In this document: positions 44-28,418 of the stretch, in pieces
How the letters are laid out: the number at the start of each line of letters is the position of its first letter
Position numbering within the stretch: the first letter of the stretch is position 1
Source of the DNA: Candidatus Poseidoniaceae archaeon
Lineage (GTDB): Archaea > Thermoplasmatota > Poseidoniia > Poseidoniales > Poseidoniaceae
DNA length: 38,929 bases
NCBI GenBank assembly: GCA_949538025.1
Contig: CATISI010000088.1
Coordinates: 1-38,929 of the forward strand
Reading direction: 5' to 3'
Translations under genes and position numbers: made by a program
Notes under the pieces: generated by a model
What the model was told of the DNA's origin: nothing
What the model saw: only the letters and a program-made list of their open reading frames with translations
The model's database searches: none

Positions 44-3000
44 ATGGAAAAGGTATCAAAGACCTCGCAACGCCCTGTTTTGAGTTGGCTTATTGCCCCT
101 CTAGCAGTGCTGATTGCAATACTAGCAAACTACGTCGACGGACTCATGTCCATCGATGTTGAATTAAACAACGATGCGATGATGCCAGTCATCATCACCG
201 GAGTCGCCGGTCTCTTGGCCGTCACTCCTCGCATCCTCCGTCAACTAGGATCTCTACCAGAGTCGATTTCTCAAACACAAATCTCCCTCGCTATGTTTGT
301 TATCGCTCTTGTTGGTGCCGGAGTTGCAGAGTCCCAAACCGACGGATTTGTTGGTTTCACGTTCTTGGCGGTACTCTTCGGTGGGTATCTACTCGACACT
401 CGTGAGCGATACGAGTGGACGACTATGCTTGTCTTCGCTGGTGTCGGCGTGCATTCGGCATTCGATATTGCAGCAGCGGCTGCTGTGGATGGATATCTTC
501 CAAACACATACGAGTTCACCGGCGGACAATCTTACGATGTCTCGACGTTCCAAGAAACTGCTCTTGGCTTCGTCTTCTTCACATGGTTTACGGTCTTCCC
601 GATTATCGGTCTTCTCGTTGGTGTAGCTGGTCGTGGTGTTCTCAATCCAGCAGGCGACAAGGGATGGTTTTCCTACAATACAGTCGAATCAGGTTGGAAT
701 CGTCAAGCACTACCACTGCAAATCGCCCTTTTTGTTTGGGCAGCAGCCCACTTGGCCACCATCTGGCATTTCGATCAAGGAAGCATCGCAGATCGCCTAC
801 GCCTTGGTGGTCTGGGTGGCGTTGAAGCAAACGGCTTCGTCGGCTATTACTCGGCCCTTCTGACGGGAATCGTCGCAATCATTGTTTCAGGGATGGTTGC
901 AGAGCGTTGGTACACTCGAGCCATGACACTGAGCTCCCTGTGGGTTCTTTTCCAAATCGGTTCTTGGCTGGAAGCAGGATTTTGGACCAACGAAACCTTC
1001 GAAGAATCTTGGGCTCCTCTGATTTGGCTTGCTATCACGTTCTTCGTTGGTGTCGCTATCTCACTGATTGGAAACCACGAAAAATACGGTGGCTGGTCCA
1101 ACCGTGAGTCACATCGCCCAAGCGGTGCACGTCAATTTTGGAACGCCCATTGGGCCAGTCTATTGACCGTCGTCGCCTTCCTTGTCGGTCTCGTCATTCG
1201 TATTCAGTGGTATGCAGTCCCATCAATGCACGCTCTTGGTACCGACGGATTCGACATGACTGGCGGTTCTGACCCATGGTACATGAAGCGAGTTGTCGAC
1301 TATATTCTCGCTCAGAACGCTCACCTTGTCGTTGATGCAGACCGATTCTACCCAATCGGCGGTATCAATCCACGTCCTCCATTGTTCTCATGGAGTCTAG
1401 CAATAGGGGCCATGGTTTTGCAACCATTCCTCGGCGAGGATGCAGTCTGGTGGAGCATGCTTGCTCTCCCTGCTATCTACGGTGCATTGACCATTCTACC
1501 AGTTGCTGCAATCGCACGAGACCACTTCGGTAAAGCTGCAGGTGTCATCGCTGCTTGGCTGATTGCCTTCATGCCTGCCCACGTCACACACTCGACATGG
1601 GGATTGGCGGACCACGATTCATTCGTTATGTTGTTCATCGCCATTGGATTCATGTTTTACCTACGTGCTGTCAAGTACGCTGGTTCGGAACGTCTTGTCC
1701 GAGCCACATCGATCCGTCCATTCGATATGCTTCGAGCGATGGGTGCGGTTGCACAAGAGCGACAGTATGCAATGGCTAATGCAGTTCTTGCAGGTGTCGC
1801 ATTCGGTGCTGCAAGCCTTGGTTGGAAGGGATTCGTTGTCGGTCCTGCAATTTTGTTCCTTGCATACGCTGCGCAGGTCGCCCTCAACATGTTCCGACGA
1901 CGTGACTCGACAATTTTGAGCACGCTGTTCCTTACCATGCTCCTTACCAATCTCTTGATTGCGTTACCGTTCTACGCACACCCACAGATGAACCTCATGT
2001 TGGATGGAAGCGGTCTTCAACCGTTCCTGTTCATTCTGCTGTTCACCATTGTCATGATGTACATCACAACCGGATTCCGTGACAAACCATGGCTCCTCGT
2101 TCTGGGTACGCTTGCAGTCGGTGCTGTTGCTTTCCTTGGTGCTCTATGGGTTCTCAAGTACTTCAATCTCAGCAACGCATGGGATGTCTTATTCACTGGT
2201 GGTGGATACTTCACGAAGACGAAGATTTTCGGAACGGTTGCTGAAGCAAACGCTCCTGACCGCGGTTACATGTTCGCAAGTTTCGGACCAATCGTATTTG
2301 TCTTTGCTCTCGTAGTGGGCCTCACATCGCTGTGGCGAACCTTCAGCAAGCGAAGCCAAATTTCCTTGGTCTTTGCCGTTTGGATTTTCGCAGCATCGTA
2401 CATGTCCTGGACCGCAGCTCGTTTCCTCTTCAACGCAACACCTGTCGTTGCCATCATGGGCGCCGCAGGAATAGTTGGTTTCTGGAAGTGGGCTGACTGG
2501 GATAGTCTCGTACGTACCTGGCGAAGAGCAGGTATCCGAACACCATCTGAGCGAATTGCTGGTGCGCGACGAGCCGTGTGGCGAACACCATCGTTCTCCG
2601 CAGTTGTTCTTGTCCTCATCATGCTCTCTGGCCAGCAACTTACCTACGGTTTGGATTCAGCGATTCCAAGCAACTCTCCAGCAGAAGGCGACTTGGATGA
2701 ATCGTTCTACTACTCAGTACCTGACATCATGCGTTGGGATGGCCTCGGTGTTTCTGTCCTCGATAGTCGAGACTACGAAGCCTTTGGCGGTCGTGCCTAC
2801 ATGGGGTCGTTTGGAAGTGGTTTCAATGGCCAATACTGGAACGATGCCCATGAGTGGCTCGCCAATCAAGACAAGTATCACGAGGGCGTCTCAACGAAAG
2901 ACGATTGTGATACCCACAATGGTATCTGGATCAGCGATTCAGGCCTTTGTGAGATGAAATTCGGTGATAAACCAGCGTTCGTTTCATGGTGGGACTACGG

Positions 3001-6000
3001 TTTCCAAGCATTGAACACAGGTGAACACCCATCTGTTTCTGACAACTTCCAGACAGGTATTCCCACTTCAGGTAACATGCTTCTTGCTCGTAGTCAAATC
3101 GACTTGGTCGCTATGTTCATCCAACATCTTGCTGTTGCAGACATCACCTACAACGTTGGTAAGTCGGGTGACAAAGCCTTCACTCCAGCGTTCGAATCCG
3201 CGCTCAAGAACGGACTCGAGAATGCTGAACAAATCGAAGAACTTGAACTCGTCATGCTGCAAGACGGCATGGATTTCGATGACATGATAGAAGTTCTAAC
3301 CGATCGCAGCTTCGAGGCGTTCAAGAACAAGGGGGACACCTACATGACACGTGGGTACCCTCTCGATGCGAACGGCATTCCTGACAAGAGCATCGGTCTG
3401 CATTACCGTGTGTGGTCCGATGGTGAATTGATACCTTGTGACAATCCAAGCACAGAATTCTGTTTCAATGGAGATTACGTCTCTGAAGATTCAGCCAACA
3501 GCACCTTCCGAAACAACGCTGACGTCAGCTCGACTGAAGTCTCCGATGTCACACATTACACGTTCGGTGACTATTGGTACACCGCTGACTTGGTGGAAGA
3601 ATACGATTCCGTTTCGACAAGCATCCATCGTCAGAACGCATTGATCGCTCTTGTTGTTCAACTTCTGACCAAAGGTCTTGATGAGAGCCAAGTGGTTGAC
3701 CTTTATCACGATATCATTGGACTGGAATTCAACTACGAAGTTCAAGACTACAACGGCGCTCCTGGAGAGACCATCGAGCGTGACCACGAAATCCGTTACT
3801 TTGCCATTGATGACAAGCTCTATCCACGTGCAGGCCGCTATAATTCAGAAGCCGGTTACAACGGTGGACGACCGCTTGGTATCTTTGGTGCCCCAACCAT
3901 CCTATCCGGACAAGATTACAACACCTTTACCGACGAAGTGTATGAAACCAAGCGTGGAGACCAACCAGTACGTGAAATGGATCGAGAAGCTGTTGACGAA
4001 GCCATGCTCAAAGATGTCTTAGATCAACAATCCGGTGCTGATATCGAGCCATTGACTGTTCAAGATATTCGTGTTGACCACCTCCCCGAATTCTTTGACA
4101 CGATGTTGGCTCGTTCCTATGTCGGATACGGTGCATCAACGCTCGGAGCAGATGCTGGTTCAACCAACCCACAGCCTCGTCAGCAGTTGAGTGAAAGTTC
4201 ACGTGGAACCTCGTTTTTGCAGCAAGCCTACCCTTTGCCGGGTGCCATGATGAATCACTTCGTTATAGCCAACTGGTACGACCCTGAGACACCTGCAATT
4301 TTAGCCAACGCCAACGTCAAGGTCATGAAATACTACTCCGGTGCTGAAATTTCTGGTACCGTGATGACAGAGGACGATGGCTTAGGTCTACCAAATGCTC
4401 GAATTCTCATCGAACGTGATGCATTCTCCGGAGAGGGTGCAGAAGATCTTGATGAGGACACCTACTGGATCCCAATCGGTGTTACTGACGCTGATGAGAA
4501 CGGTGACTGGAGTTTCCTCGCACCTGCAGGAAAGATTCGTGTATCTGCTTTCGCAGGAGTTTATGATGATACGTTAGTTCTTCAAGACATCCAAAGTGGT
4601 GAGTTCGTTGATGGATTTGGCGACGTACTTACAGAGACTAACGATGATCGTGAAGTCTACGCCATTACCGCCATTCTCGGTGAAGTCGCAAACATGACGT
4701 GGTTGGGTGAAACCACCATCAACGTCACAGGTGCGCAAGCAGACCGAGACCCGAACGCCCCAGCAACTGCAGACATGGATATCGAAGTCCAGAGTACGGG
4801 CGTATCAGGAACAGTCACATGGTCTGGATACGGTGATTTCGACGGAGAGCCACTTGTCGAAACAGATTTCATTCTGCGAAACATCTGGGCAATGACCGAG
4901 AACTACACAATGACCACAACCAATGGTTCGTTCGAGACCGATGAAACTCGCGTTCTACAAGGAACGGGTGAGGTCACCTTCTCCGATGTTGGAACATTTA
5001 CCAGCGAAGGTGTGGCACTCGCTTACGATTTCACTGGAAACTTCACTCGAGAGATTTCCGATGCCCGTGTCTTCGCTGGAAACGGAACTTGGATCGGTAA
5101 GGGAACGATTGAAGCAACCTGGATTGAGCACGACAATGCATCACTCGATTGTGGTGAAAACAACACTATGCCAGAAAATGCGACATTGTGTTTGATTTCT
5201 GAAGGAACTGATTTCTCGACGTACCTCTTGGATGGAGAAGTTATGGCCAGTGGACGTTTGACTTCCGATGGTGTTAGCACGCTGATGAAGGAACTCGACG
5301 GTGAGACTTTTGAGGGCACTGGTATCTTCGAAGGTGTTGGAACGCTCAATGGAACTGGACTGTTCATTGGTCCAGGTACCTTCAGCGGTGATATCGTCAA
5401 CCCAGGTTCCTTCTACCAAACTGGTCTTGTTCCGGGCGTATACAACATGATTGCATTGATGCCAAATGGTAGAGAGATTCTCCTACCTGATCCTGTTGAG
5501 GTTGGCATTGAACCAAGTTTCGATTTGGCAATGACTCTGCCGGCCTCGTTGTTTGCAGATCAACTGACAACAATGTCAGGTGAAGCGATTCCGAACCAAG
5601 ATGTGCAACTCATCGATGTTGCTCTTGGCGAAGACGAAATGGTCACCATCACATCCGATGATGAAGGAAACGTCTCATACGGGCCGATTACAGCTGGCGA
5701 ATACTACGTTCGAGTTGATCTCGACGACGATGGATTCTACGAACTCAACCAGACTCTGCAGGTCTTCGATGAGCCAATGAACTTCACCTTTGACACAGGC
5801 GTGCCGGAAATGTACGATCTAACAATCACATTGAACGGCCCAGAAGGATTCGATGTTTCAGGTCTAGAAGTCAACTTCACCGACCCACTCGGATTGTTAC
5901 CAATCAGTGTTGTTTCCGATGAGAACGGTGTTGTTTACGTCGAACTTCCTGTCGGTGAATGGTCCGCAAGTGACAACAGCGATGAGGACTACATCCTGAT

Positions 6001-9000
6001 TGAAGAAATTAAGGTCGAGGATTCAGACTTGACATTGGACTTCACATACTCGACCTCGGTTTGGGTCAACGGTTCTATTGACGCTCCGAACACAGCTGGA
6101 TTTACCTACGAGGAGTGGCTTGCACTCGCTGCAGAAGAGAAACTGTACGAGAATGCAAGTTCAGTTCCAGTTACCTTCCACGGTAACGGACTGGAATTTA
6201 CCACGATTACGGATCAATTCGGTGAGTTCAGTCAGCGCTTACCTGCTGATATGACCTTCAACCTCAATGCGCAAAGTTCCGTATCGAGCTTCGCCGTTGG
6301 CTCTTCTGTCGTTGTATCCGAAGGAATGGCTGATTTAGATGCCTTAATTCTCGAGCCAACCGTGGACGCTGTAGGTGCAATTTATCTGTTCAACAACGAG
6401 ACAAGTTGGAATCAAGATATTCCGAACTACGAGCCTGTTGAAATTCATGCAGAAGGTGAAGATGGTGTCGTATGGACAACGACATCCGATGGAGATGGTC
6501 TGTTCAACATGCAATTGCTCAATGGAACTTGGACCTTCAGTATTCCTGCTGCGGAGTACAATGCAGCATCCGTTTCGGATTACATCGTCAACGTTCAAGA
6601 TGGCATGAACCCAGAACCTGTGAGTTTGATTACAAACCCTGCAAACAGTACTGTGACTCTCAACGTCTTCACCGATTTGGGAGATGGTGTCTTTGAAAAT
6701 GGAACGGCTGTCCGCCCTGATATACAGTTAATTCCTGTATCTGTAGTCGGTGAAGGTGTAAACATCACTTCGGACGACTACAGCGAAGACGGAATTGTTG
6801 AGGTTGTTTTGAGCCCAGGTATCTATGCCATTTCGACCAATAACTTGGACGCATCAGATGAAAACGCAAGTGATGCAAGTCTCGAGGTCAATGCTGTATT
6901 GGACATTATTCCAATCGGTTTGACTGGTCCTGAAGAACCAGTTCTCGTTCCAATCGTTGATGCATGGCGCATGAACGGAACAATCTCATGGGCCAATGGC
7001 TCTGCAATGGTCGAGAACTTCTTGCTCTCCACACCAGATGGTTCAGATTACGTCCCGATCAGTGTTGATGAAAATGGAACCTTCGCAGCCTACGTGCAGA
7101 GCGGTGATTACATTGTCGTGGTTGCACCACTACTCAACGGAGATGGTGTCACAGAATCACTGCGTATGCCAATCACCATTGGAGACGATTCCAGTGTTCG
7201 CACTGAACTCGCACTTTCACTTGTCGAGGCTGTCGAAGTCTCGCTCACCTTGTTGGAAGCGGGTACAGAATCTGAACTCTCTGGAAAGAAGGTTGTCCTC
7301 GTCAGTCATGATGGCTTTGGTAATATCACCATGAATCCATCCGATGCTGATGGAAACGCATCACAATTATTGATGCCAGGAACATGGAGCCTCTACATGA
7401 ACGAGTCCGCAGCACAACGCTACTGGACGCTCGATACATCCGATGCTCCTATCTTGATCGACGCAAACACCTCGCTTGGCGATGTGTATGCAGAATTGGA
7501 AGTTGAAATTGGTGGAAAGGCTTACTGGGATACCGATGAAAATGACATCGCAGATGGCAACGAAGGTGTCGAAGGCGCTGATGTTACCATCCAAGGTGGA
7601 ATCATCGACACGGTCGTGACAACAGACGCTGACGGTGTTTGGCGAATCTATGTCCCAATCCTCGAGAGCTATTCTGTTACCGTCGCAAAGGACGGATTTG
7701 GTGTCGTATCGTACGATGACAATGATACAGGGATGTATGTTGTTGACAATGAACCTGTTTCACAGGATATCGAAATGTCAGCAGCAGAAGTCACCGTAAC
7801 AGGGACCATCACCGATGTTCTTGACGCCTCCCGATTGGATGGTGCAACCATCACACTCTACGGAACCTCAGAGAATCAACAAGATGCTGTTGAAGTTGTT
7901 GGAGTTCTCGTTGATGAGACGCTTTCATTCACAGCAGTTGTTGAACCCGGACAATGGGTTGTCGTTGTTTACGAAGATGATGCACCGTTCAACGGCGGTG
8001 GTGTAGCAGTTGGATTGCTTGAAGCTGAAGTACAGAATGGCGGTTCAATTGAACTTGTTATGAGCAAGGGTGGTTGGGTTGATGTATCAACCGAATTCAC
8101 TTCGTTCAACCTACAGACCTTCAATGCTGGCATGGGCGATGCTTCATCACCTGTTGCAGATGTTGTTGATATCGAAGTTGACCTTGGAGATGGACGTGTT
8201 TGGGCCCTACCGTTGGAATCCGACGGTACACTCGAAGTCCTCCTCCCAGCTGAAGCAGCAACATTCAACTCGGAATTCTCAACCGTTCAGCGCGATTTGA
8301 CCATGAACTACACCGCCGGTGTTTCGATTGACAACGGTGACGAAGGCCGAACCTCGGTCATGCTTTCCTACAACAGAAAAACGAACAGCGACCTAACGCT
8401 CACTGTCGACTCGGTTACAGGAGCCACAGTACTCGGAGATGAAAACCGTGATTTGCTCGCTGTTGTGGACACAAGCGACGACGCCAACTACACGGCCATT
8501 GAGTTCGATGTCCTCGCACAATACGGTGGAACTGAGATTTCAGATCCGTTCGAAGTGACCGGTACAGTAACCGTATCGCCTGACCAAGAAGATTGGTCTG
8601 TTGAATTCTACAACGGTACGGATTGGGTCAGCACATCCAACGTTCAGCTTGGCATTGGTGACGTTGCAGAGAACGCAACGCTCGAAGCTACGCTGCGTGC
8701 ACGAATTGTTCTGCCATCTGTTGAAACGGCATGGTGGCTTGAAAACGGTCATGACATCAACATTCGATTCTCTGCCGACAGTGGAGATATGACGGAAGTT
8801 TCGCTCAATGTCGAAGTCCCTCAAACCTACGGATTCAACACAACGGATGTTACATCCACGGTTGGTGTTGCACCTGGTGGTACTACCACTGCGTCCTTGA
8901 CTATCAACAACAACGGTAACGGTGATGACTCCTTCACGTACGAAGTGCTTGACAACCTGCCAGATGGTTGGACGGTAACTCCAATGAATGGTGTCACCAC

Positions 9001-9595
9001 GATTGCTAAGGACAACATGCGTGACCTTGCATTCTCTATAACCGGTGCGCCTTCCTTCGATGATGGTAAAGTTACTGTCACCGTTCGAATTACAAGCGAG
9101 GATGGTGTGACGCAAGAAGATGTTAAGATAATTGTTGAATCTGCTCGAATCGTGTTGAGCTGGGATCAAGATATCTCCACATCTCGAAGCAATATCTTGG
9201 CAGACGTTGAACCAAACACTCTCGTGATTGTCATCGAGAACAGTGGTCTACGTCCAGCGCAACAAGTGACGATTTACCTTGATAGCAAGGGAATGTCAGA
9301 GATGAACATGACACTCAACGTTCCTGCAGAAGGTTCAACAGACTTCGAATTTGTCTTGCCGAAGGCGAGCCAAGGAATCACTCGATACGACGTACGTGCA
9401 GAAATCCTCGGTGATGATGCCAATTACTCGACCAACAATGTTGATGGGGATTTCCCGATAGAGTATGTGGTGCAGGGTTCGGAAGAGACATCCAACCCGA
9501 TCGTTATCATCGTCATCATTGCTTTGACCTTCACCATTCTGTACTTCGGATTCAAGGCGTCGTCTCGAGTCCGTGGCGCTGGTGGACGATTCTGA
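44..9595 (+). CDS. aglB: Giant (3183 aa) membrane protein: archaeal oligosaccharyltransferase AglB/STT3 core fused to a ~2100-aa extracellular beta-sandwich-repeat extension with a terminal TM anchor
   Basis: Uninterrupted ORF with ATG at 44, preceded by GAGGG (32-36). STT3 hallmarks in the translation: GGSDPWYMKR (D410, nt 1271-1273), ADHDSF (D523-H524-D525, nt 1610-1618) and WWDYG (aa 982-986, nt 2987-3001), set among many hydrophobic helices. The downstream part is acidic and rich in N-x-S/T. It has recurring carboxypeptidase-regulatory-like and CARDB-like signatures, e.g. SGTVMTEDDGLGLPNARILIERD...TDADENGDWSF and NTLVIVIENSGLRPAQQVTIYLD. It ends with the hydrophobic helix NPIVIIVIIALTFTILYFGF plus the basic tail KASSRVRGAGGRF. 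Confidence 0.85.
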   Translation: MEKVSKTSQRPVLSWLIAPLAVLIAILANYVDGLMSIDVELNNDAMMPVIITGVAGLLAVTPRILRQLGSLPESISQTQISLAMFVIALVGAGVAESQTDGFVGFTFLAVLFGGYLLDTRERYEWTTMLVFAGVGVHSAFDIAAAAAVDGYLPNTYEFTGGQSYDVSTFQETALGFVFFTWFTVFPIIGLLVGVAGRGVLNPAGDKGWFSYNTVESGWNRQALPLQIALFVWAAAHLATIWHFDQGSIADRLRLGGLGGVEANGFVGYYSALLTGIVAIIVSGMVAERWYTRAMTLSSLWVLFQIGSWLEAGFWTNETFEESWAPLIWLAITFFVGVAISLIGNHEKYGGWSNRESHRPSGARQFWNAHWASLLTVVAFLVGLVIRIQWYAVPSMHALGTDGFDMTGGSDPWYMKRVVDYILAQNAHLVVDADRFYPIGGINPRPPLFSWSLAIGAMVLQPFLGEDAVWWSMLALPAIYGALTILPVAAIARDHFGKAAGVIAAWLIAFMPAHVTHSTWGLADHDSFVMLFIAIGFMFYLRAVKYAGSERLVRATSIRPFDMLRAMGAVAQERQYAMANAVLAGVAFGAASLGWKGFVVGPAILFLAYAAQVALNMFRRRDSTILSTLFLTMLLTNLLIALPFYAHPQMNLMLDGSGLQPFLFILLFTIVMMYITTGFRDKPWLLVLGTLAVGAVAFLGALWVLKYFNLSNAWDVLFTGGGYFTKTKIFGTVAEANAPDRGYMFASFGPIVFVFALVVGLTSLWRTFSKRSQISLVFAVWIFAASYMSWTAARFLFNATPVVAIMGAAGIVGFWKWADWDSLVRTWRRAGIRTPSERIAGARRAVWRTPSFSAVVLVLIMLSGQQLTYGLDSAIPSNSPAEGDLDESFYYSVPDIMRWDGLGVSVLDSRDYEAFGGRAYMGSFGSGFNGQYWNDAHEWLANQDKYHEGVSTKDDCDTHNGIWISDSGLCEMKFGDKPAFVSWWDYGFQALNTGEHPSVSDNFQTGIPTSGNMLLARSQIDLVAMFIQHLAVADITYNVGKSGDKAFTPAFESALKNGLENAEQIEELELVMLQDGMDFDDMIEVLTDRSFEAFKNKGDTYMTRGYPLDANGIPDKSIGLHYRVWSDGELIPCDNPSTEFCFNGDYVSEDSANSTFRNNADVSSTEVSDVTHYTFGDYWYTADLVEEYDSVSTSIHRQNALIALVVQLLTKGLDESQVVDLYHDIIGLEFNYEVQDYNGAPGETIERDHEIRYFAIDDKLYPRAGRYNSEAGYNGGRPLGIFGAPTILSGQDYNTFTDEVYETKRGDQPVREMDREAVDEAMLKDVLDQQSGADIEPLTVQDIRVDHLPEFFDTMLARSYVGYGASTLGADAGSTNPQPRQQLSESSRGTSFLQQAYPLPGAMMNHFVIANWYDPETPAILANANVKVMKYYSGAEISGTVMTEDDGLGLPNARILIERDAFSGEGAEDLDEDTYWIPIGVTDADENGDWSFLAPAGKIRVSAFAGVYDDTLVLQDIQSGEFVDGFGDVLTETNDDREVYAITAILGEVANMTWLGETTINVTGAQADRDPNAPATADMDIEVQSTGVSGTVTWSGYGDFDGEPLVETDFILRNIWAMTENYTMTTTNGSFETDETRVLQGTGEVTFSDVGTFTSEGVALAYDFTGNFTREISDARVFAGNGTWIGKGTIEATWIEHDNASLDCGENNTMPENATLCLISEGTDFSTYLLDGEVMASGRLTSDGVSTLMKELDGETFEGTGIFEGVGTLNGTGLFIGPGTFSGDIVNPGSFYQTGLVPGVYNMIALMPNGREILLPDPVEVGIEPSFDLAMTLPASLFADQLTTMSGEAIPNQDVQLIDVALGEDEMVTITSDDEGNVSYGPITAGEYYVRVDLDDDGFYELNQTLQVFDEPMNFTFDTGVPEMYDLTITLNGPEGFDVSGLEVNFTDPLGLLPISVVSDENGVVYVELPVGEWSASDNSDEDYILIEEIKVEDSDLTLDFTYSTSVWVNGSIDAPNTAGFTYEEWLALAAEEKLYENASSVPVTFHGNGLEFTTITDQFGEFSQRLPADMTFNLNAQSSVSSFAVGSSVVVSEGMADLDALILEPTVDAVGAIYLFNNETSWNQDIPNYEPVEIHAEGEDGVVWTTTSDGDGLFNMQLLNGTWTFSIPAAEYNAASVSDYIVNVQDGMNPEPVSLITNPANSTVTLNVFTDLGDGVFENGTAVRPDIQLIPVSVVGEGVNITSDDYSEDGIVEVVLSPGIYAISTNNLDASDENASDASLEVNAVLDIIPIGLTGPEEPVLVPIVDAWRMNGTISWANGSAMVENFLLSTPDGSDYVPISVDENGTFAAYVQSGDYIVVVAPLLNGDGVTESLRMPITIGDDSSVRTELALSLVEAVEVSLTLLEAGTESELSGKKVVLVSHDGFGNITMNPSDADGNASQLLMPGTWSLYMNESAAQRYWTLDTSDAPILIDANTSLGDVYAELEVEIGGKAYWDTDENDIADGNEGVEGADVTIQGGIIDTVVTTDADGVWRIYVPILESYSVTVAKDGFGVVSYDDNDTGMYVVDNEPVSQDIEMSAAEVTVTGTITDVLDASRLDGATITLYGTSENQQDAVEVVGVLVDETLSFTAVVEPGQWVVVVYEDDAPFNGGGVAVGLLEAEVQNGGSIELVMSKGGWVDVSTEFTSFNLQTFNAGMGDASSPVADVVDIEVDLGDGRVWALPLESDGTLEVLLPAEAATFNSEFSTVQRDLTMNYTAGVSIDNGDEGRTSVMLSYNRKTNSDLTLTVDSVTGATVLGDENRDLLAVVDTSDDANYTAIEFDVLAQYGGTEISDPFEVTGTVTVSPDQEDWSVEFYNGTDWVSTSNVQLGIGDVAENATLEATLRARIVLPSVETAWWLENGHDINIRFSADSGDMTEVSLNVEVPQTYGFNTTDVTSTVGVAPGGTTTASLTINNNGNGDDSFTYEVLDNLPDGWTVTPMNGVTTIAKDNMRDLAFSITGAPSFDDGKVTVTVRITSEDGVTQEDVKIIVESARIVLSWDQDISTSRSNILADVEPNTLVIVIENSGLRPAQQVTIYLDSKGMSEMNMTLNVPAEGSTDFEFVLPKASQGITRYDVRAEILGDDANYSTNNVDGDFPIEYVVQGSEETSNPIVIIVIIALTFTILYFGFKASSRVRGAGGRF
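1139..3340 (+). other. STT3/AglB catalytic core region (canonical TM1 through the WWDYG-containing external domain). Boundaries are approximate.
   Basis: The helix ASLLTVVAFLVGLVIRIQWYAV is followed directly by the DPWY..R loop motif, then a DHD motif, multiple TM helices, and WWDYG at nt 2987-3001. SDNFQTGIPTSGNMLLA sits where the DK/MI motif is normally found. Boundaries were judged by eye. Confidence 0.7.
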
Positions 9596-9650: not shown

Positions 9651-10856
9651 ATGGAGGAACTGCGTGGAGTTGAATTGCTTCCTGAACCCGGGGAGCCAAA
9701 GATTCTCTCTGCCATTGACCCCTCGACCGCAGGTCATGAAGGTCAGTGGCGAGCAAAGGTAACCGGTTGGGCACCAGTAGTTCCTAATACAGTACCATTT
9801 AGGCCACGACGTGTCTTTTCCTTTGCATCAGGCATTTTTGTTGCACTGTTTATGGGTATGGTCGTGGTCTTATGGCAGTCTGATCTCCTGTTATTGCAAT
9901 TACCACCTCCAACTTCAGAATGGGCCTTCGAGGATTCCGAAATTCGAGAACTGCAAGAGACAGGTCTCACTGGTGAGGGTGTTCGTGTATGCATGGTTGA
10001 CACGGGAGTTTCACTTTCACACACTTCTCTTGATGATGCGGACATCGTGTTCAAGGATTTTGTCGGGAATTCTGAAACACCCACAGATTATGGTTCCATC
10101 GCTCATGGCACCCTCATGGCAGGAATCTTACTGTCAAACGATTTCCAACAAGGTATCGCACCCGATGTTACATTGGGTATGGCGGCAGCGTTGAGTGCTA
10201 ACGGTGAGAACAATACTGGTTCAGAGACACGTGTAGCCGATGCTATTCGCTGGTGCATTTTTGATTTCGAAGCTGACATTATCTCGCTCTCTCTTGGCGG
10301 TGCACAAGATCAATCAGCATCTCGTGAAGGTCCTGCCGTTTCTGCAACCAGACAAGCTATTGATGCAGGAATCTTCGTTGTCGCCGCGGCTGGAAACGAT
10401 GGAGGTTCCGGTGATGATGGATTTGTAAGCGCACCTGGCAACGTCAACCTCGTCATCACAGTGGGCGCTTCGGATCGAGAAGGGAACGTCTGGAGTCAAT
10501 CGTCCATGGGCGAATCTGTCGACAAGGATGGGAACGTTCGTGTATATCCAAATCAAAAGCCCGAATTGGTTGCACCGGGTGTTGACATTCTATCAACTGG
10601 CACGGATAACCAGTGGTACACGTCCAGTGGTACTTCAGACGCAACGGTGTTTGTTGCGGGAGCTTTGGCATTGATACTTGAGGCTCATCCCGAACTTAAA
10701 CCGAAAGGGCAACCGACAACAGGCTGCATTGAACTTGTGAAACGTGCATTAGCAGATTCGATGAATCCAGATTCGCAACATGATTCAAAACAAGGGTATG
10801 GTCAGCTGAAGGCAAGCGCGTGGCAGGATCAGTTTTCTGATGAAATCGTATGCTAA
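9651..10856 (+). CDS. Membrane-anchored subtilisin-like serine protease (peptidase S8) with no recognisable propeptide
   Basis: ATG at 9651 is preceded by GGGAGGGG. The catalytic triad motifs occur in subtilase order: VCMVDTGV (D117, nt 9999-10001), AHGTLMAG (H152) and SGTSDATVFVAGALA (S329), with the oxyanion Asn in AAAGND (N249). A single TM helix (FASGIFVALFMGMVVVLW, about aa 58-75) lies roughly 40 aa before the catalytic Asp, after a ~55-aa N-terminal segment. Confidence 0.85.
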   Translation: MEELRGVELLPEPGEPKILSAIDPSTAGHEGQWRAKVTGWAPVVPNTVPFRPRRVFSFASGIFVALFMGMVVVLWQSDLLLLQLPPPTSEWAFEDSEIRELQETGLTGEGVRVCMVDTGVSLSHTSLDDADIVFKDFVGNSETPTDYGSIAHGTLMAGILLSNDFQQGIAPDVTLGMAAALSANGENNTGSETRVADAIRWCIFDFEADIISLSLGGAQDQSASREGPAVSATRQAIDAGIFVVAAAGNDGGSGDDGFVSAPGNVNLVITVGASDREGNVWSQSSMGESVDKDGNVRVYPNQKPELVAPGVDILSTGTDNQWYTSSGTSDATVFVAGALALILEAHPELKPKGQPTTGCIELVKRALADSMNPDSQHDSKQGYGQLKASAWQDQFSDEIVC

Positions 10857-11008
10857 TCAAATAGGAATTGGTTGATACTATTCGGTATATTTGATATTTT
10901 TAAAGATAAAATGATGATATTTTCACAGGATATTGATATTTTTTCAAGTGTCAAATGGGGCGCAGTATTATATTCGTTCAGTGCTTCCACAGTAATAGAG
11001 GACTGAAC
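10857..11008 (+). promoter_or_regulatory. AT-rich intergenic region, likely the promoter of the beta-helix/STAND gene pair, and a possible oligo-T termination zone for the upstream pair
   Basis: This is the most AT-rich stretch I saw in the window. It contains the TATA-like TTTTTAAAGATAAAA (about 10897-10911) and T-runs. An AGAGGA Shine-Dalgarno-like element lies 7 nt before the ATG at 11009. Confidence 0.45.
10873..10942 (+). repeat. Three exact plus one degenerate direct copies of TGATATTTT, spaced 19-23 bp apart
   Basis: Exact TGATATTTT at 10892-10900, 10915-10923 and 10934-10942. A degenerate copy, TGATACTA, starts at 10873. The spacing is about two helical turns. Confidence 0.6.
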
Positions 11009-14000
11009 ATGCAATTTGCAAATGTTGGAAAAAGTATAGGACTAGTGGGACTACTTCTCACATCGTTGATGATCGGTTTGGTTACTGTGCCAACCGCAAG
11101 CGCAGTAAACGAGACGGCATCCGGAACAATCGTTACAACCGAGATATGGAGTGGCACACACACTCTTACAGGCGACGTTACCGTTGCAGAAGGTGCGAAA
11201 CTTGTCATACAAGCTGGGACAACGATTAACATCCCTGCTGGTGTTTTCATCGATGTTGAAGGCGCTATATGTGCAGGTTCAGCAGCATGTGGGGCAACAC
11301 AAGGAAGCGCTTCTTCTCAAGTTCGCTTTGAGTGGGCAACACCCACCGATTACAGCGTTTCTGGACGATGTTACCAACAGGGCAACCAACTCCTGACCAA
11401 CTCTGACGCTGCATGCGGTTCTGGGGTCATCATCCGCAACACAATCAATCAAGCATCAACGGGTATGTCGTACGTATCGTTTAACAACGCATACGGCTAC
11501 CCAATTTACGTTCAAACTTTGCAAACTGTTCAATACGGTACACTCGTCTTCGATGGTTCTTCTACCGTTGTCGACAATCTCGCCTTCTCGAACATCAATA
11601 CATCAAACATTATTGCGCTTGATTTCGCAGCACCGACGATTCGTGACTCAACGTTCACCCTTGGTGACGACGGACGCGGATACGATGCTGCAGCCGTCCG
11701 AGCCTACGAGGCAGGTGCGGGTATCCTCTCCGCCCTGACCATTACTGGTTCCACCTTTACAGGTAACACCCAAGCGCAGTGTGGTAACCAGGGCGGAGGA
11801 CGTGTCCTCATCTACGCTGAGTCATCCTATGTCTCGATGGACAATCTCGACATCAAAGATAACGCATATGGAGCATTCTTCAAGGGTTCATCTGGATCCT
11901 TGGGCAACAGTACAATCAACGTCCTGTGCAACGCCATTGACACCAACTCTTACAAGTCAACAGGCAACTTTGCTCACACCCTTTACATCGATAACAACGT
12001 CATTACTACCGGCGAAGGTGCGGGTATTACTGCCTACGATGGCGCCATTGTCACAGCAACAGATAACACCATTTCCGGCGCATCGAGTGGTTCCGGATTC
12101 GGTATCCGTGACTCCACGCTGAGCGCTCATCGCAACACAGTAGGTCCAATCACTGGTTTCAACGGATTCTGGGTCTACGGTCAATCTGAAGTTGAGATTG
12201 AGAACAACACCGTTCAAGACACTGCAAAGGAACCAATCCAAATCGGAGAATACCACTACCGAGATCCTGGTAGTAACTACCCTGGTCCATCACCAAACCG
12301 TGCGTACATCGCAAACAACATCATCTCCAACAACTCTGGAACATGCACCTCCGAGTGGATGTATGATGGTGATTTCAATTGTCCTGCCATCCACGTTTTT
12401 ACTTCCTCTGCAACCATCGTTGACAACACCGTTTCCAACAACGCTGGTGATGGTCTTCGAATCAAGGGTTCGATTGTCAATGTTCAACGCAACACCATCG
12501 AAGCAGGACAATTTGCTGCCAACATCACACACTTCGACAACCAATACGGGCAGAAATATGGTTCCATCGGTTACTTTTCTGGGAACACATGGACCAACGC
12601 AACTCAGATCTACAACATCTCCGAATCTCGTGTAACGGTTCAATCAGAGTATATCCCTGATGCTGCCGGAGGTTACTCATTCCCGGTCATGCTCCAGTGG
12701 CTTGGTGCCGAGTGCCCATATGTCCAGTCAGAATGTCTCTTACTCCCAGACACTGCTGCTGTGCCACCTCGTGACATGCCTCTCGCCATTGAGTTGGTGA
12801 ACAATTCCACGGTCTTCTCGTTCGCAGATTTGCAAAACTTTGATGCAACAAAGGTCCACGTCCAAAACCAAAACTCAGCTTGGGGTTCACAAGTTCGCCA
12901 AGGCGAACTGGTTCGCTACCAAGTGAAAGCAAAAAACAGCAACGTCGCAGGAGCAACGGTCATCATCAAGGATGCAACAGGATTGCCTCTCTACGAGCTC
13001 ACAACAGACAATTTCGGCTTTACGCAGCAAGTATCGCTTCCATCGAACTTCCTTCTCGACCGAAACTGGAATCATTTCGTTGGGGAAAACAACGTCATTG
13101 TACCTGGTTCAGACGATGGGACAGGATCTCCAATCACGCTTGATGAAGACACATGTTCTGACGGATACGATAACGATGGAGATACTTTCGTCGATGAAGA
13201 TGACCCTGATTGTGCCAACGGTCGTGAACTCCCGTTCTACATCGTCGAAGCTTACAAATTTGGTAAGGGTAAGAAGGATTTTGATTTCGTCCTCAGTGGT
13301 TCAATTGATGATATCATCAGCCTTGACAACGAACGCCCGAGTGTCACTGTTGAACAATACGACGGTGACTCCTTTGCCATCAACGCTGTCATCACAGGAA
13401 CGGCTTGGGATGGTCGCTCTGGCCCATATCCACTCGATGTCATTGCCTATGACCGGCAATTCGGATTGATTGAGCGCGTTGAAATCCAACCTCCAGGCAG
13501 CACCGATTGGTACTATGCCGTTGACACCTCGGGTGCAAACGGCGAATTGACCAAAGAAAACCACCCGTTTAAGACGTGGTCGTTTGATTGGGATTTGTCC
13601 GCTCACCCGGATGGTGAGAGTGACGTCACCTTCAGAATTCGTTCTTATGACGGTTTGGACTACTCCCCGATCGAAGTCCGTAAGTTCAAGTTGAATCTTG
13701 TTCCACCGACACTCTATCTTAACGAGCCATTGGATGGTTCGACGCATTCCAACGGAAAGATTCTCTTTACCGGAACGGCATCTGATCCGTACTCAGGAAC
13801 ATGGGGGTCTGACATTCAAGACATCTGGTTCGACGTCTCTGGTCCGAACGGTTACGCCTCACACTTCGCCATCGATGGTTCGGTTGCTTGGGCATATGAA
13901 TGGAACTTTGCGGAACTCGAGACCGGCGAATACACGTTTGATGTGTGGGCGAGTGACAGTGACTTCTGTGACGATGTGCAAGGAACGTGCGTGATTTCGA

Positions 14001-15346
14001 CACGGACTGTCATGGTTCTTAACGACAACATCATACCAATTGTTGATCTTCTAGAACCCGATGGCACGCAACCAGTGCAGGCGGAAGAGACGACCACACT
14101 TCTCGGGTTTGCAAGCGATGGAGCCGACGGTACCATCACACGTGTTGAAATTGAAATTCTTGACCTCGCGAGCGGATTGATTCTTTCGGATGGACCAGGT
14201 CCAGTGACGACCTTCCAAAAGAGCGGACCGGGATATTCGTGGTCTGCAGTTTGGGACACAAGCAAGTTGACTCACGAACGCCAATATGAGATTCGAGTTA
14301 AAGCCTACGATGGTGAAGATTACTCGGTTGAAGACGTTGTTCGAATTACGATTTCGAAGCCGAGTGATGCCAACAATATTCCACCACAGTTCAATTCAAC
14401 TGCGTGGCCAAATCAGGTCACGATTTTCTGTGTCGTTGGCTCAACTTCTGAGAATCAGTGTGGTGGAGGGGCAGTCCTTGATTTGAAGGAATACTTCATT
14501 GATCCGGATTCATCATTTGACCAACTCAGCATCGACTTCTTGGATGATCAGACCGATCCGAGCGATGACTCTCATCCATACTTCATCACCATTGATAGCG
14601 AAGGGTTCGCTCGATACGATCCTGCTATTTCTCAATCAAACGAAGATATCACGACGTGGACCATAGAAAATGTTCGATTCATCGTCCGGGATACTTCGGA
14701 TGAGTCTGCGTTGTCCCGTGATGTCACCTTCTTTGTTCAGGCGATTCAATTCGGTGTCGAGCGAGACAATCCGAGTGGTACAGTCACTGCTACGAGCACT
14801 GCGAATTTCAGTGGAACAGGCTTGCCTGGTGCCCGAATTGAAGCACGTTCTGCAGCTTCTGAAACCCTCATCAAGACGGTAGTTGTTGGTGATACCGGTA
14901 CTTGGACAATGGCACTCACGCTTCAAGATATGAACGATGCATCGAACGACCTCAAGTTCTTGATGGATGGTCAGACCTTCGGTGGTAGTTCAGAACCCGA
15001 GACGTTTAGCGTCGTCGTTGGTGAAGCGGATGAGGGTTCGAACCTTTTCCTCATCGTTGGTATTGTTATCGCTGCCTTGGTTCTCCTTGGTGGCGTTGGG
15101 TACTTCTTCATCGAATTCGAGGATATTGAAGAAGAAGAATTTGCCACATCCGAAGAAGCACCAGAGAAGGTCGACCCATATGCTTGGGGACGAAAAGAGT
15201 CCGTCCAGACTCCTGACCAACAACCTGCTGCCGTACCGGTACAACCGGCTCAGGCGCAGGTCTCTGCTCAACATCCGGGATGGCTTTGGGACCAAGAGAC
15301 CAACCAATGGGTCCCCGATCCAAACTATCAACCTCCTTCCCAGTGA
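11009..15346 (+). CDS. Giant surface protein (~1445 aa): signal peptide, right-handed parallel beta-helix repeats, Ig-like domains, C-terminal TM helix and Pro/Gln-rich tail
   Basis: I prefer the ATG at 11009 (AGAGGA upstream) over the track start at 10955. It gives a classical signal peptide, MQFANVGKSIGLVGLLLTSLMIGLVTVPTASA/VNE. PbH1-type repeats include LYIDNNVITTGEGAGITAYDGAIVTATDNTISGASSGSGFGIRDSTL, VEIENNTVQD, AYIANNIISNNSG and ATIVDNTVSNNAGDGLRIKGSIVNVQRNTIE. Ig-like modules include LNEPLDGSTHSNGKILFTGTASDPYSG and TANFSGTGLPGARIEARSA...GDTGTWTMALT. The TM helix LFLIVGIVIAALVLLGGVGYFFI is at nt 15044-15112. Confidence 0.85.
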   Translation: MQFANVGKSIGLVGLLLTSLMIGLVTVPTASAVNETASGTIVTTEIWSGTHTLTGDVTVAEGAKLVIQAGTTINIPAGVFIDVEGAICAGSAACGATQGSASSQVRFEWATPTDYSVSGRCYQQGNQLLTNSDAACGSGVIIRNTINQASTGMSYVSFNNAYGYPIYVQTLQTVQYGTLVFDGSSTVVDNLAFSNINTSNIIALDFAAPTIRDSTFTLGDDGRGYDAAAVRAYEAGAGILSALTITGSTFTGNTQAQCGNQGGGRVLIYAESSYVSMDNLDIKDNAYGAFFKGSSGSLGNSTINVLCNAIDTNSYKSTGNFAHTLYIDNNVITTGEGAGITAYDGAIVTATDNTISGASSGSGFGIRDSTLSAHRNTVGPITGFNGFWVYGQSEVEIENNTVQDTAKEPIQIGEYHYRDPGSNYPGPSPNRAYIANNIISNNSGTCTSEWMYDGDFNCPAIHVFTSSATIVDNTVSNNAGDGLRIKGSIVNVQRNTIEAGQFAANITHFDNQYGQKYGSIGYFSGNTWTNATQIYNISESRVTVQSEYIPDAAGGYSFPVMLQWLGAECPYVQSECLLLPDTAAVPPRDMPLAIELVNNSTVFSFADLQNFDATKVHVQNQNSAWGSQVRQGELVRYQVKAKNSNVAGATVIIKDATGLPLYELTTDNFGFTQQVSLPSNFLLDRNWNHFVGENNVIVPGSDDGTGSPITLDEDTCSDGYDNDGDTFVDEDDPDCANGRELPFYIVEAYKFGKGKKDFDFVLSGSIDDIISLDNERPSVTVEQYDGDSFAINAVITGTAWDGRSGPYPLDVIAYDRQFGLIERVEIQPPGSTDWYYAVDTSGANGELTKENHPFKTWSFDWDLSAHPDGESDVTFRIRSYDGLDYSPIEVRKFKLNLVPPTLYLNEPLDGSTHSNGKILFTGTASDPYSGTWGSDIQDIWFDVSGPNGYASHFAIDGSVAWAYEWNFAELETGEYTFDVWASDSDFCDDVQGTCVISTRTVMVLNDNIIPIVDLLEPDGTQPVQAEETTTLLGFASDGADGTITRVEIEILDLASGLILSDGPGPVTTFQKSGPGYSWSAVWDTSKLTHERQYEIRVKAYDGEDYSVEDVVRITISKPSDANNIPPQFNSTAWPNQVTIFCVVGSTSENQCGGGAVLDLKEYFIDPDSSFDQLSIDFLDDQTDPSDDSHPYFITIDSEGFARYDPAISQSNEDITTWTIENVRFIVRDTSDESALSRDVTFFVQAIQFGVERDNPSGTVTATSTANFSGTGLPGARIEARSAASETLIKTVVVGDTGTWTMALTLQDMNDASNDLKFLMDGQTFGGSSEPETFSVVVGEADEGSNLFLIVGIVIAALVLLGGVGYFFIEFEDIEEEEFATSEEAPEKVDPYAWGRKESVQTPDQQPAAVPVQPAQAQVSAQHPGWLWDQETNQWVPDPNYQPPSQ

Positions 15347-17872: not shown

Positions 17873-18339
17873 AACATGGGTCGGTCGAGTTCAATGGAAA
17901 TCACTCCATTGTAATAGACGACCCAAATGGATTCAACCCCTGCGAGATTGACCAGGCCACTGTGTGGTGCAGATGCAGTGCCAGACAACGAGCGTTCAGT
18001 TCCCAATTCACCTTGCTCATCGTAGAGAATCAATGATGTATCTGTTAATTCCAATGTGAATTGCGATTCGTCGGCTTCCGTAGCTCGCCAGTAAACGCGT
18101 TCTGCGTAGGATGAATTGTCAATTCGACTGGCAACATCCGTACGCTCAATGGCAGCCGATAAATCGTTCATATTGGCATCAATGGCTTCCTCATTCCAGC
18201 GCTCTCGTGTCGCAGTTTCAATGTCATAAATCCACAAACTGAACATCGTAAGGAGCAACACGCCGAGCAGAAATGTGAACACATATCCGAGTTCAGTTGC
18301 GGCTGCCTCTCGATTTTGTTGCAAGGTTGATGTCTTCAA
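17869..18339 (-). CDS. Small (~156 aa) pilin-like protein with a class III signal-peptide-like N-terminus. Proposed TTG start.
   Basis: The track ORF (to 18504) would overlap the upstream gene by 169 nt. An in-frame TTG at 18339-18337 lies 4 nt after GGAGGTGA and overlaps the upstream TGA stop (TTGA). The resulting N-terminus is (M)KTSTLQQNREAAATELGYVFTFLLGVLLLTMFSLWIY: a short polar leader followed by one hydrophobic helix. Confidence 0.6.
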   Translation of the reverse strand: MKTSTLQQNREAAATELGYVFTFLLGVLLLTMFSLWIYDIETATRERWNEEAIDANMNDLSAAIERTDVASRIDNSSYAERVYWRATEADESQFTLELTDTSLILYDEQGELGTERSLSGTASAPHSGLVNLAGVESIWVVYYNGVISIELDRPMF

Positions 18340-20522: not shown

Positions 20523-21559
20523 GCATTCACCGCCAATCGTCGTACGTCGATCTCAAGGTAGAGGGGTTGACCCTGTGTTTCCACCGTTAAACCGTCGCTT
20601 CCACTCGCTCTCTGGTACGGAGTGATTCCAACGAATTCACCAAGTGTTCCTGATGCCCGACTAATGGTGTACTCGTTGAGCCAAGCTTCGTGGTACTGCG
20701 GGTCGATGACGGAATGGAGTGTGTTGGTGACCTTGATTTGAAGGTTGTACGATTCACCCGTAAACAATTGAATTGGTCCAAGGGATTCGACCTTGAATCC
20801 AACGTTTGGACCATTCCCAAGCGCATTGCCCAAACGGAGGTCTGTAAGAACTATTGAAAGTCTTGTGGAGCCATCGACCAGTGTATCAAGGCGCAACTTT
20901 GGTGCCTCTTCAATGGTCCATGAGGTTGTCGGATCTCGAGAAATCCTCGCATCGTTAATCAATGCAATTTGGTTCATTCCTCCATCGATTGCTGTGTTGA
21001 TACTCAGGCCTGAAAGAACGAAGCGTGACCATCGGTGGACATGGTCACCTCCTGCATTGTAGAAATCGATGATGAGAAATGCTTCACTGTCCATGCTGTG
21101 ATCTAGGGTTGTCCATTCGAACGAAGGTGTAACAGTAAACTGAGTTGTATTCTGAACGGCTTGTACAACCACATTCGTCACAGATTCATTGAGAGCCATA
21201 AATTCAAACGATGTTGCATTCAATTCGTTTACTTTGACCACTTCGAGCGGCGATAAATCAGCGGCAATCGTCCACTCTTCGACAAGATTCGCAGGATTGA
21301 TTGAGGACGATTTTAAGGACAGAGCTTGGCGTGTACCAGTACCATCTGGTGCATCACCAACAACATCGATACGGTCTTCAATTCGGTCTGCAATGTTACT
21401 GGCACTGTTCCAGTTGGTGTTGTCGTGAAACGCAACCAAGTATGGATTGAGGAAAATCCAGACGCCGCCCATGATTGTAATGACCATGGCAAGCATCATG
21501 ATGACGCCGAGGATTTCACTAACGGCATCGTCATCTTCAGCAGTTCTACGCCGACGCAT
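20519..21559 (-). CDS. Pilin-like protein (346 aa) with an archaeal type IV pilin N-terminal signal
   Basis: The N-terminus is MRRRRTAEDDDA/VSEILGVIMMLAMVITIMGGVWIF. This closely matches the archaeal pilin N-terminal consensus ((D/E)(R/x)AVSxVIGVILMVAITV). GGGGAGG lies 5 nt upstream of the ATG at 21559. Confidence 0.85.
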   Translation of the reverse strand: MRRRRTAEDDDAVSEILGVIMMLAMVITIMGGVWIFLNPYLVAFHDNTNWNSASNIADRIEDRIDVVGDAPDGTGTRQALSLKSSSINPANLVEEWTIAADLSPLEVVKVNELNATSFEFMALNESVTNVVVQAVQNTTQFTVTPSFEWTTLDHSMDSEAFLIIDFYNAGGDHVHRWSRFVLSGLSINTAIDGGMNQIALINDARISRDPTTSWTIEEAPKLRLDTLVDGSTRLSIVLTDLRLGNALGNGPNVGFKVESLGPIQLFTGESYNLQIKVTNTLHSVIDPQYHEAWLNEYTISRASGTLGEFVGITPYQRASGSDGLTVETQGQPLYLEIDVRRLAVNA

Positions 21560-28370: not shown

Positions 28371-28418
28371 TGACCGCAGAGCAAACGCTTGATAATCCTT
28401 CAAGCACTGGGTTGTAAC

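Follow-up and report, generated by a model that had tools for sequence, protein, structure and literature searches.

AglB is the oligosaccharyltransferase that transfers a lipid-linked glycan to the asparagine of N-x-S/T sequons on the outer face of the archaeal membrane, and it is viewed as a compact enzyme with a single subunit of about 600 to 1000 residues. Marine group II (MGII, the Poseidoniales) comprises the most abundant archaea of the surface ocean and belongs to the Thermoplasmatota, many of which lack a classical S-layer. Among the characterised enzymes, AfAglB-L of A. fulgidus has 868 residues and AfAglB-S1 and AfAglB-S2 have 591 and 593; the globular domains of AglB are organised into CC, IS and P1 units (PMC3703281). 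Here we describe a giant AglB encoded on contig CATISI010000088.1 of Candidatus Poseidoniaceae archaeon (assembly GCA_949538025.1), positions 1 to 38,929 of which are referred to below as the window. The frame is continuous over 3183 codons (window 44-9595, forward strand). An earlier reading of the letters alone (hereafter the original prediction) had placed a full STT3/AglB signature in this frame and had noted that characterised AglB/STT3 subunits are several-fold shorter. Both statements hold: the DPWY, DHD and WWDYG motifs are all where they had been placed, and the size difference is evident from the lengths above.

The assignment of the open reading frame (ORF) as an AglB/STT3 catalytic subunit (family GT66, GT-C fold) is well supported by sequence comparison. 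Pfam STT3 (PF02516) matches residues 405-805 with 45.8 bits (cutoff 24.5), and the same scan gives a weak AglB_core-like match. The NCBIfam model archaeo_STT3 (TIGR04154) covers residues 376-1017 only, with an E value of 4e-47; at 161.2 bits against a curated cutoff of 450, the protein falls outside the archaeosortase A-associated AglB subfamily that this model defines. A phmmer search aligns residues 363-809 and 978-1012 with AglB-L of A. fulgidus (3WAJ); the stretches GG(S/N)DPWY, DH(D/H) and WWDYG of the catalytic site fall in register. A profile of the giant AglB family matches 3WAJ with E 3e-31, AglB C-terminal domains with E 3e-10 to 1e-9, and yeast and human STT3 (STT3A/B) with about 1e-9. 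The GGSDPWY, D-H-D and T-V-A-E motifs are invariant among the homologues. Hydropathy analysis gives about 13 hydrophobic segments within residues 361-865, the first being followed by a 79-residue loop; the AlphaFold2 (AF2) model of this part has a predicted local distance difference test score (pLDDT) below 50.

The full length of the protein is conserved. A search of 5.8 billion proteins gave more than 120 full-length homologues of 3146-3228 residues, with 98-100% query coverage and identities from 94% down to 49%; their sources are Poseidoniaceae/Poseidoniales assemblies from ENA, JGI, NCBI, Tara and Logan. In contigs taken as one genome per species, 51 MGII loci were located; about 30 of their ORFs are complete, and a single one of these is interrupted. 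A chimera or frameshift had been considered possible near nt 3300-3500. None is found there: the frame is intact in about 30 independent loci with that one exception, and it is colinear with distant homologues. The ratio dN/dS (Nei-Gojobori, ten orthologues) lies between 0.03 and 0.09 in every segment, the array and the anchor described below included; these values are rough because synonymous sites are close to saturation (proportion of synonymous differences, pS, 0.6-0.72). The whole protein is under purifying selection.

The original prediction recognised an AglB core, a long extension and a second membrane anchor, and these stand; it overlooked a block of about ten transmembrane (TM) helices at the N-terminus that is evident from hydropathy. 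STT3 homology begins only at residue ~361, after these extra helices. In the AF2 model helices span residues 11-344, with pLDDT 65-80 for residues 11-280 only. Residues 1-345 have no Pfam match, and a PDB profile search was empty for residues 1-360. The N-terminus is placed inside the cell on account of the even number of helices and the charge distribution, which agrees with the first TM helix of STT3 starting from the cytoplasm. The block is confined to proteins of about 3150 residues. A tblastn search of 80 loci of shorter relatives (class 2, below) with their flanking DNA found no separate homologue of it. The block also has one conserved sequon, N316-E-T, in a loop predicted to face the outside.

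The extracellular globular region that follows the TM core consists of a core unit with WWDYG, an inserted alpha/beta subdomain, an IRYFAID strand, the GIFGAP motif and a flexible linker at residues ~1360-1410. A profile search matched the AglB C-terminal domains 3vu0 and 3vgp to residues 924-994. Class-2 AglBs are colinear with residues 353-1071 and again with residues 1203-1502, the second block holding the near-invariant IRYFAID...GIFGAP; an insertion of about 200 residues separates the two blocks. Part of this insertion is hypervariable, with the highest proportion of nonsynonymous differences (pN) of any region. Cys-1132 and Cys-1140 are invariant despite these surroundings. An AF2 model of residues 871-2070 (31-sequence alignment) reached pLDDT 77.5 with a predicted template modelling score of 0.69. 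It shows a mixed alpha/beta fold up to residue ~1360, a low-confidence linker at ~1360-1410 and a first beta-sandwich at ~1425-1504.

The GIFGAP sequence is a candidate for the DK/MI position, the place where a pocket for the +2 Ser/Thr of the sequon is expected from the published motif definition (PMC3703281). HMMER leaves the region unaligned to the solved AglBs. The motif reads GIFYAP in class-2 proteins and has Ile where the Lys of a DK motif would be. The Lys of IDDKLYPRAG was considered as a DK motif and was dropped in favour of GIFGAP given the same definition.

Beyond the globular region lies an acidic array (D+E ~17%, K+R ~2-4%) of beta-sandwich domains. The original prediction of a ~2100-residue acidic beta-sandwich extension was correct as to composition and fold; the true add-on is about 1730 residues, since the AglB globular domain continues for some 430 residues past WWDYG, to residue ~1420. 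We estimate about 11 transthyretin/CarboxypepD_reg-like domains followed by CARDB-like units, roughly 15 in total. This count is an estimate because it rests on hallmark motifs spaced ~90-100 residues apart and on a partial AF2 model. The predicted CarboxypepD_reg-like and CARDB-like repeats were both recovered, the former with a strong Pfam match and the latter as a weak match to choice-of-anchor T (CARDB-like). A hidden Markov model built from the best CarboxypepD_reg repeat finds the other repeats only marginally (E 0.05-1). The sequence NNGNGDD (residues 2956-2962) lies within the CARDB-like region; Pfam CARDB matches occur in two homologues (P0097 and P0185), and weak SdrD_B and SpaA matches occur in the giant AglB. 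Residues 1151-1800 hold 58-62% identity where overall identity is ~50% and are the best conserved part after the TM core, the distal domains and the anchor diverging faster. A strongly conserved glycine-rich stretch, ETFEGTGIFEGVGTLNGTGLFIGPGTFSG, is found at residues ~1720-1800 (window 5200-5500, forward strand); it lies among long beta-strands modelled with low confidence (pLDDT 42-64) and is not a standard CarboxypepD_reg domain.

Foldseek searches of the PDB with the array returned the tandem-domain adhesin and pilin stalks TIE, SdrD, RrgB, BcpA and SpaA with E values down to 5e-12, as well as SlaB, an S-layer protein of Sulfolobus, and NOMO from the human BOS complex. The family profile matches human NOMO2 with E 5e-29; its alignment with P1, the peripheral unit of AfAglB-L, is weak. 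This weak alignment hints that the array may be a multiplied form of a unit found in long AglBs.

As had been predicted, the frame ends in a TM helix and a basic tail, KASSRVRGAGGRF. Hydropathy analysis reveals no TM segment between residues 863 and 3151. The C-terminus (...SNPIVIIVIIALTFTILYFGFKASSRVRGAGGRF) has no PGF and thus no PGF-CTERM/archaeosortase A signal; it likewise has no LPXTG/sortase signal, and no conserved motif precedes the C-terminal helix in the MGII homologues. With 10, 13 and 1 hydrophobic helices in succession, and charges that fit the positive-inside rule, the predicted topology has the array on the outside of the cell, where a membrane tether at either end would hold it as a long loop or arch.

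This design extends well beyond MGII. Scanning 1.84 billion representative proteins by HMMER with residues 361-1100 gave 780 relatives of the core, which split into two length classes. Class 1 (3146-3228 residues, STT3 starting at residue ~333-397) is found in Thalassarchaeaceae and Poseidoniaceae. Class 2 has more than 80 clusters (50% identity) of proteins with 2000-2800 residues, in which STT3 starts close to the N-terminus and identity to the core of the query is 29-38%; its members bear several CarboxypepD_reg, SdrD_B and CARDB/NPCBM_assoc domains. Among the 93 representatives of at least 2000 residues (50% clustering), 91 have a hydrophobic C-terminal helix followed by a basic tail, and most shorter matches are fragments of proteins of ~2100-2200 residues. 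An alignment-based genome scan located 586 giant AglB loci across Thermoplasmatota. The best 80 of these 586 come from Methanomassiliicoccales, Methanomethylophilaceae, DHVE2, marine group III, Halarchaeoplasma, Natronoplasma, Saliniplasma and unclassified Thermoplasmata; among these 80, all but two of the 61 complete class-2 ORFs have 2012-2449 residues and a C-terminal anchor, their hosts being Methanomassiliicoccales, DHVE2, marine group III and haloalkaliphilic Thermoplasmata. Two members from Methanomassiliicoccales (L053 and L060, CP070739) end in PIPGFE, a hydrophobic helix and basic residues, a PGF-CTERM-like end that replaces the plain TM anchor. These two ends suggest that attachment of the far end to the membrane is itself a selected property.

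The cultured Aciduliprofundum sp. MAR08-339 has a 2081-residue member with GGSDSYY, TIAE, WWDYG, GIFYAP and the anchor, annotated as 'putative membrane protein, required for N-linked glycosylation'. Database names are otherwise generic: STT3 domain-containing, GT39 family, carboxypeptidase regulatory-like and even 'peptide transporter'. Judged from these matches, an array with an anchor is the standard form of AglB across Thermoplasmatota, present in databases under STT3 annotation. The architecture had been called unusual, and relative to the characterised enzymes it is, but fusions of this type are common within the phylum. Our literature searches found no description of the giant AglB architecture; an earlier mention in the survey of Nikolayev et al. 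2020 (Mol Phylogenet Evol) is possible.

The distribution of sequons bears on the role of the array. Residues 1421-2600 contain 30 N-x-S/T sequons where shuffled sequences give ~10 (z ~5), and the array is enriched two- to threefold overall. The catalytic globular domain (residues 871-1420) has one sequon against 3.3 expected, and the cytoplasmic STAND protein in the window has none against 2.2 expected; other large secreted ORFs in the window show less enrichment or none. Across homologues of both classes the extension carries 1.8-5.0 sequons per 100 residues and the TM part 0.2-1.1. An MGII oligosaccharyltransferase is among the more highly transcribed genes in active genus-O1 populations (PMC9723583).

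We consider it reasonably probable (about 0.6) that the giant AglB works as an oligosaccharyltransferase and that its peripheral domain has expanded into a surface scaffold, anchored at two ends and probably glycosylated by the enzyme itself. The array would have arisen by expansion of the 'peripheral' beta-domain found in long AglBs. It would be heavily N-glycosylated, most simply in cis by its own catalytic domain as the chain emerges, and would then be no free adhesin but a glycosylated scaffold or spacer that contributes to the cell coat surrounding the enzyme. In MGII the neighbouring membrane-anchored subtilase may process or maintain it. A stronger version is more doubtful. Here enzyme and main substrate would be one polypeptide, the self-glycosylated, NOMO-like arch of ~15 domains would be a principal structural element of the cell coat, as a substitute for or spacer to an S-layer, and MGII would have added the 10-TM module and a dedicated subtilase.

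Several points weigh against a self-glycosylated scaffold. The Lys of the DK motif appears to be replaced in GIFGAP, and the Ser/Thr pocket would thus be unlike that of the characterised AglBs. Residues 2601-3150 show no sequon enrichment. The AF2 model of residues 1-1200 (9-sequence alignment) has a pLDDT of only 43.9, and the membrane fold is therefore putative, as would be a docking of the C-terminal helix onto it; Foldseek with this model gave meaningless GPCR and transporter matches only (E > 0.3). The proposal also leaves room for a second AglB of ordinary length in the same genomes. Lastly, the one interrupted MGII locus (L007, CAXQWT010000055.1) has an in-frame stop at residue ~1053 (locus 12071-12073). 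This orthologue is 91% identical and otherwise colinear, with the stop inside the hypervariable insert; the stop may come from a sequencing error or mark a pseudogene, or the gene may be naturally split. The contig is binned as 'Salipiger bermudensis' but is clearly archaeal and thus mis-binned.

Alternatively, the array could serve catalysis itself, either like an accessory subunit (ribophorin I, OST48) or as a NOMO-like spacer, the stalk and C-terminal helix packing on the STT3 core and handling substrates as they emerge from Sec. A beta-sandwich ectodomain with one TM helix and a short basic tail does mirror both the oligosaccharyltransferase (OST) accessory subunits and NOMO. The NOMO2 profile match, the Foldseek match to the BOS complex, the high conservation of the enzyme-proximal residues 1151-1800 and the strictly conserved length are all in keeping with such a role. 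The NOMO similarity, however, may reflect only the widespread CarboxypepD_reg domain that the two proteins share, and a Pfam scan of the whole protein found no match to Ribophorin_I, DDOST_48kD or OST3_OST6 at E <= 0.1. At ~1730 residues the array far exceeds known accessory ectodomains, and its sequon enrichment suggests a substrate rather than a tool. We regard a primarily catalytic role as unlikely.

It is also conceivable that the protein is a precursor, cleaved at the linker (residues ~1360-1410) or in the hypervariable insert into an AglB of normal size and a C-terminally anchored surface glycoprotein, with the S8 subtilase as a possible protease in MGII. The linker is of low complexity as well as of low model confidence. 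The subtilase gene begins ~55 nt downstream of the giant AglB gene in all 33 Poseidoniales loci that have downstream sequence, and its catalytic domain is predicted to lie outside the cell; the L007 locus demonstrates that a split at residue ~1053 can be recovered in an assembly. Class-2 loci nevertheless keep the fusion with no linked subtilase, the two halves occur as separate genes in none of about 90 complete loci, and a cut at residue 1053 would cost the catalytic domain its IRYFAID/GIFGAP part. Processing of this kind seems to us quite unlikely.

The best fold matches of the array are Gram-positive adhesins and pilins (for SdrD, its B domain), and the window encodes many other giant surface proteins, so that an adhesin for particles, algae or other cells, incidentally fused to AglB, has to be weighed. 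Tethering at both ends would leave no free tip, and the C-terminus carries no LPXTG or other sortase signal. The same design is found in surface ocean, anoxic sediment, gut methanogens, vents and soda lakes. An adhesin with variable repeats is further disfavoured because length and domain order are constant, with no variation in repeat number, and purifying selection is uniform, with no diversifying region. We judge this reading improbable. The accessory, adhesin and precursor readings are not all mutually exclusive. An artefact (assembly chimera, read-through of two genes or pseudogene), for which only the L007 stop and a few fragmented genes in other assemblies could speak, is excluded by the comparative data: the full-length homologues from independent assemblies, the 51 MGII and 586 Thermoplasmatota genome loci, the low dN/dS everywhere and the complete genome of a cultured isolate, Aciduliprofundum sp. 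MAR08-339, with the same design.

Features of the giant AglB and of neighbouring genes in the window (residue numbers refer to the encoded protein)
Feature	Window position (nt)	Strand	Basis
Giant AglB/STT3 oligosaccharyltransferase, complete ORF, 3183 residues plus stop	44..9595	+	Pfam, NCBIfam, homologues, purifying selection
N-terminal add-on, ~10 predicted TM helices, Poseidoniales (MGII)-specific, residues 1-345	44..1078	+	Hydropathy, AF2 helices at residues 11-344
STT3 catalytic core, 13 predicted TM helices, residues 361-865	1124..2638	+	Pfam, TIGR04154, 3WAJ alignment
GGSDPWY, first acidic catalytic motif (D410), external loop 1, residues 407-413	1262..1282	+	Aligns with AfAglB-L GGNDPWY
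D523-H-D525, second DXD-type motif	1610..1618	+	Aligns with AfAglB-L DHH
T731-V-A-E734, TIXE-type motif, external loop 5	2234..2245	+	Motif reading
AglB extracellular globular region, residues 866-1420	2639..4303	+	3vu0/3vgp match, class-2 colinearity, AF2
WWDYG, extracellular globular domain, residues 982-986	2987..3001	+	Aligns with AfAglB-L, 3vgp/3vu0 and eukaryotic STT3
Hypervariable part of insertion, residues 1041-1150	3164..3493	+	4-6% invariant columns; highest pN
GIFGAP, conserved motif at expected place of DK/MI Ser/Thr pocket, residues 1279-1284	3878..3895	+	Near-invariant in both classes
Extracellular array, ~15 beta-sandwich domains (estimate), residues 1421-3150	4304..9493	+	Pfam, NCBIfam, AF2 and Foldseek, NOMO2 profile
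Best CarboxypepD_reg domain, residues 2506-2578	7559..7777	+	Pfam, E 4e-16
CARDB-like/choice-of-anchor-T-like region, residues 2838-3028	8555..9127	+	NCBIfam, weak, below cutoff
C-terminal TM anchor (residues 3152-3170) and basic cytoplasmic tail (residues 3171-3183)	9497..9592	+	Hydropathy
Membrane-anchored extracytoplasmic S8 subtilase (predicted)	9651..10856	+	Pfam, TM helix, catalytic motifs
Secreted protein, 1463 residues, right-handed beta-helix and bacterial Ig domains	10955-15346	+	Follows subtilase in 28 related loci
Helix-turn-helix, STAND NTPase and TPR protein, 837 residues, among surface-protein genes	15359-17872	+	
Two ORFs (728 and 346 residues) with archaeal type IV pilin-like N-termini	18336-21559	-	Weak Pfam Pilin_N, DUF7289
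Two adjacent giant ORFs (1916 and 1806 residues) with N-terminal hydrophobic segments	22620-28370, 28389-33809	+	Essentially no Pfam match

The subtilase has a signal-anchor at residues ~55-78, following FRPRRV, and DTG117, HGT152 and GTS motifs; its last residue is Cys. Its gene is not adjacent to class-2 AglB genes. Directly upstream of the giant AglB gene, MGII loci carry a CDP-archaeol synthase gene (carS, minus strand) and purD (L033, 6741-8791, and equivalents). A C-terminal Cys is shared by several proteins that look unrelated, namely upstream ORFs of ~400-413 residues in three loci (L007, L029 and L040) and the subtilases in all loci, the ends reading ...NMPTC, ...DMNTC, ...KPQPC, ...APSC and ...IVC; it may mark a C-terminal modification or be a coincidence. 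The first of the two giant ORFs further downstream (1916 residues) is acidic (D+E 18%) and modestly enriched in sequons.

The data point to a phylum-wide form of AglB that is two to four times larger than the characterised AglBs and carries a sequon-rich stalk predicted to be tethered at both ends, with the N-terminal 10-TM block and linked subtilase as additions found in MGII only. If the stalk is cell coat or shapes access of substrates, the view of the Thermoplasmatota envelope and of N-glycosylation would change, and there would be a prokaryotic parallel to the eukaryotic multi-subunit OST and to NOMO-type lumenal spacers. If it is merely decorative, it would be a lineage-specific elaboration of a known enzyme. 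The cultured relatives (Aciduliprofundum and probably Methanomassiliicoccus) carry the shorter version, which makes the idea directly testable.

The closest described proteins are the archaeal long AglBs (A. fulgidus AglB-L, PDB 3WAJ/5GMY, and P. furiosus AglB-L). The giant AglB shares with them the motifs GG(N/S)DPWY, DH(H/D), T-I/V-x-E and WWDYG of a GT-C core, which in the giant AglB is predicted to have 13 TM helices, and an extracellular globular domain made up of central core, inserted and peripheral units. It differs in its length (3183 residues against 868), in the ~10 extra N-terminal TM helices and in the ~200-residue insertion in the core unit; the peripheral part is multiplied to ~15 domains, there is a second membrane anchor and Ile is found at the expected place of the DK Lys. 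Class-2 AglBs (2081 residues in Aciduliprofundum sp. MAR08-339, ~2150 in Methanomassiliicoccales) are homologous. They have the colinear core and globular domain, the first CarboxypepD_reg domain, the sequon-rich beta-sandwich array and the C-terminal TM helix with basic tail, but lack the N-terminal 10-TM block, most of the insertion at residues 1041-1240, some 5-6 array domains and the linked subtilase gene.

Outside the AglB family, the Gram-positive pilin and MSCRAMM stalks (SdrD B, RrgB, BcpA, SpaA and B. anthracis TIE) are the best structural matches and share tandem CnaB/transthyretin-like beta-sandwiches. The array, in contrast, has neither a sortase signal nor a free distal ligand-binding domain, and it is predicted to be anchored at both ends and is fused to an enzyme. 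The likeness to the OST accessory subunits (ribophorin I/Ost1 and OST48/Wbp1) is one of analogy only: these too have a beta-sandwich ectodomain, one TM helix and a short basic tail and associate with STT3, whereas the array is covalently fused to it and much larger. NOMO (BOS complex of the eukaryotic ER, PDB 9C7V/9C7U) shares a string of non-cytoplasmic CarboxypepD_reg/transthyretin-like Ig domains, a single C-terminal TM helix and a short tail. It differs in being a stand-alone type I protein of ~12 Ig-like domains that contains no enzyme and works with Nicalin and TMEM147. With its array fused to STT3, the giant AglB does not appear to be a NOMO/BOS subunit, and the similarity between the two may lie at the level of the domain family only.

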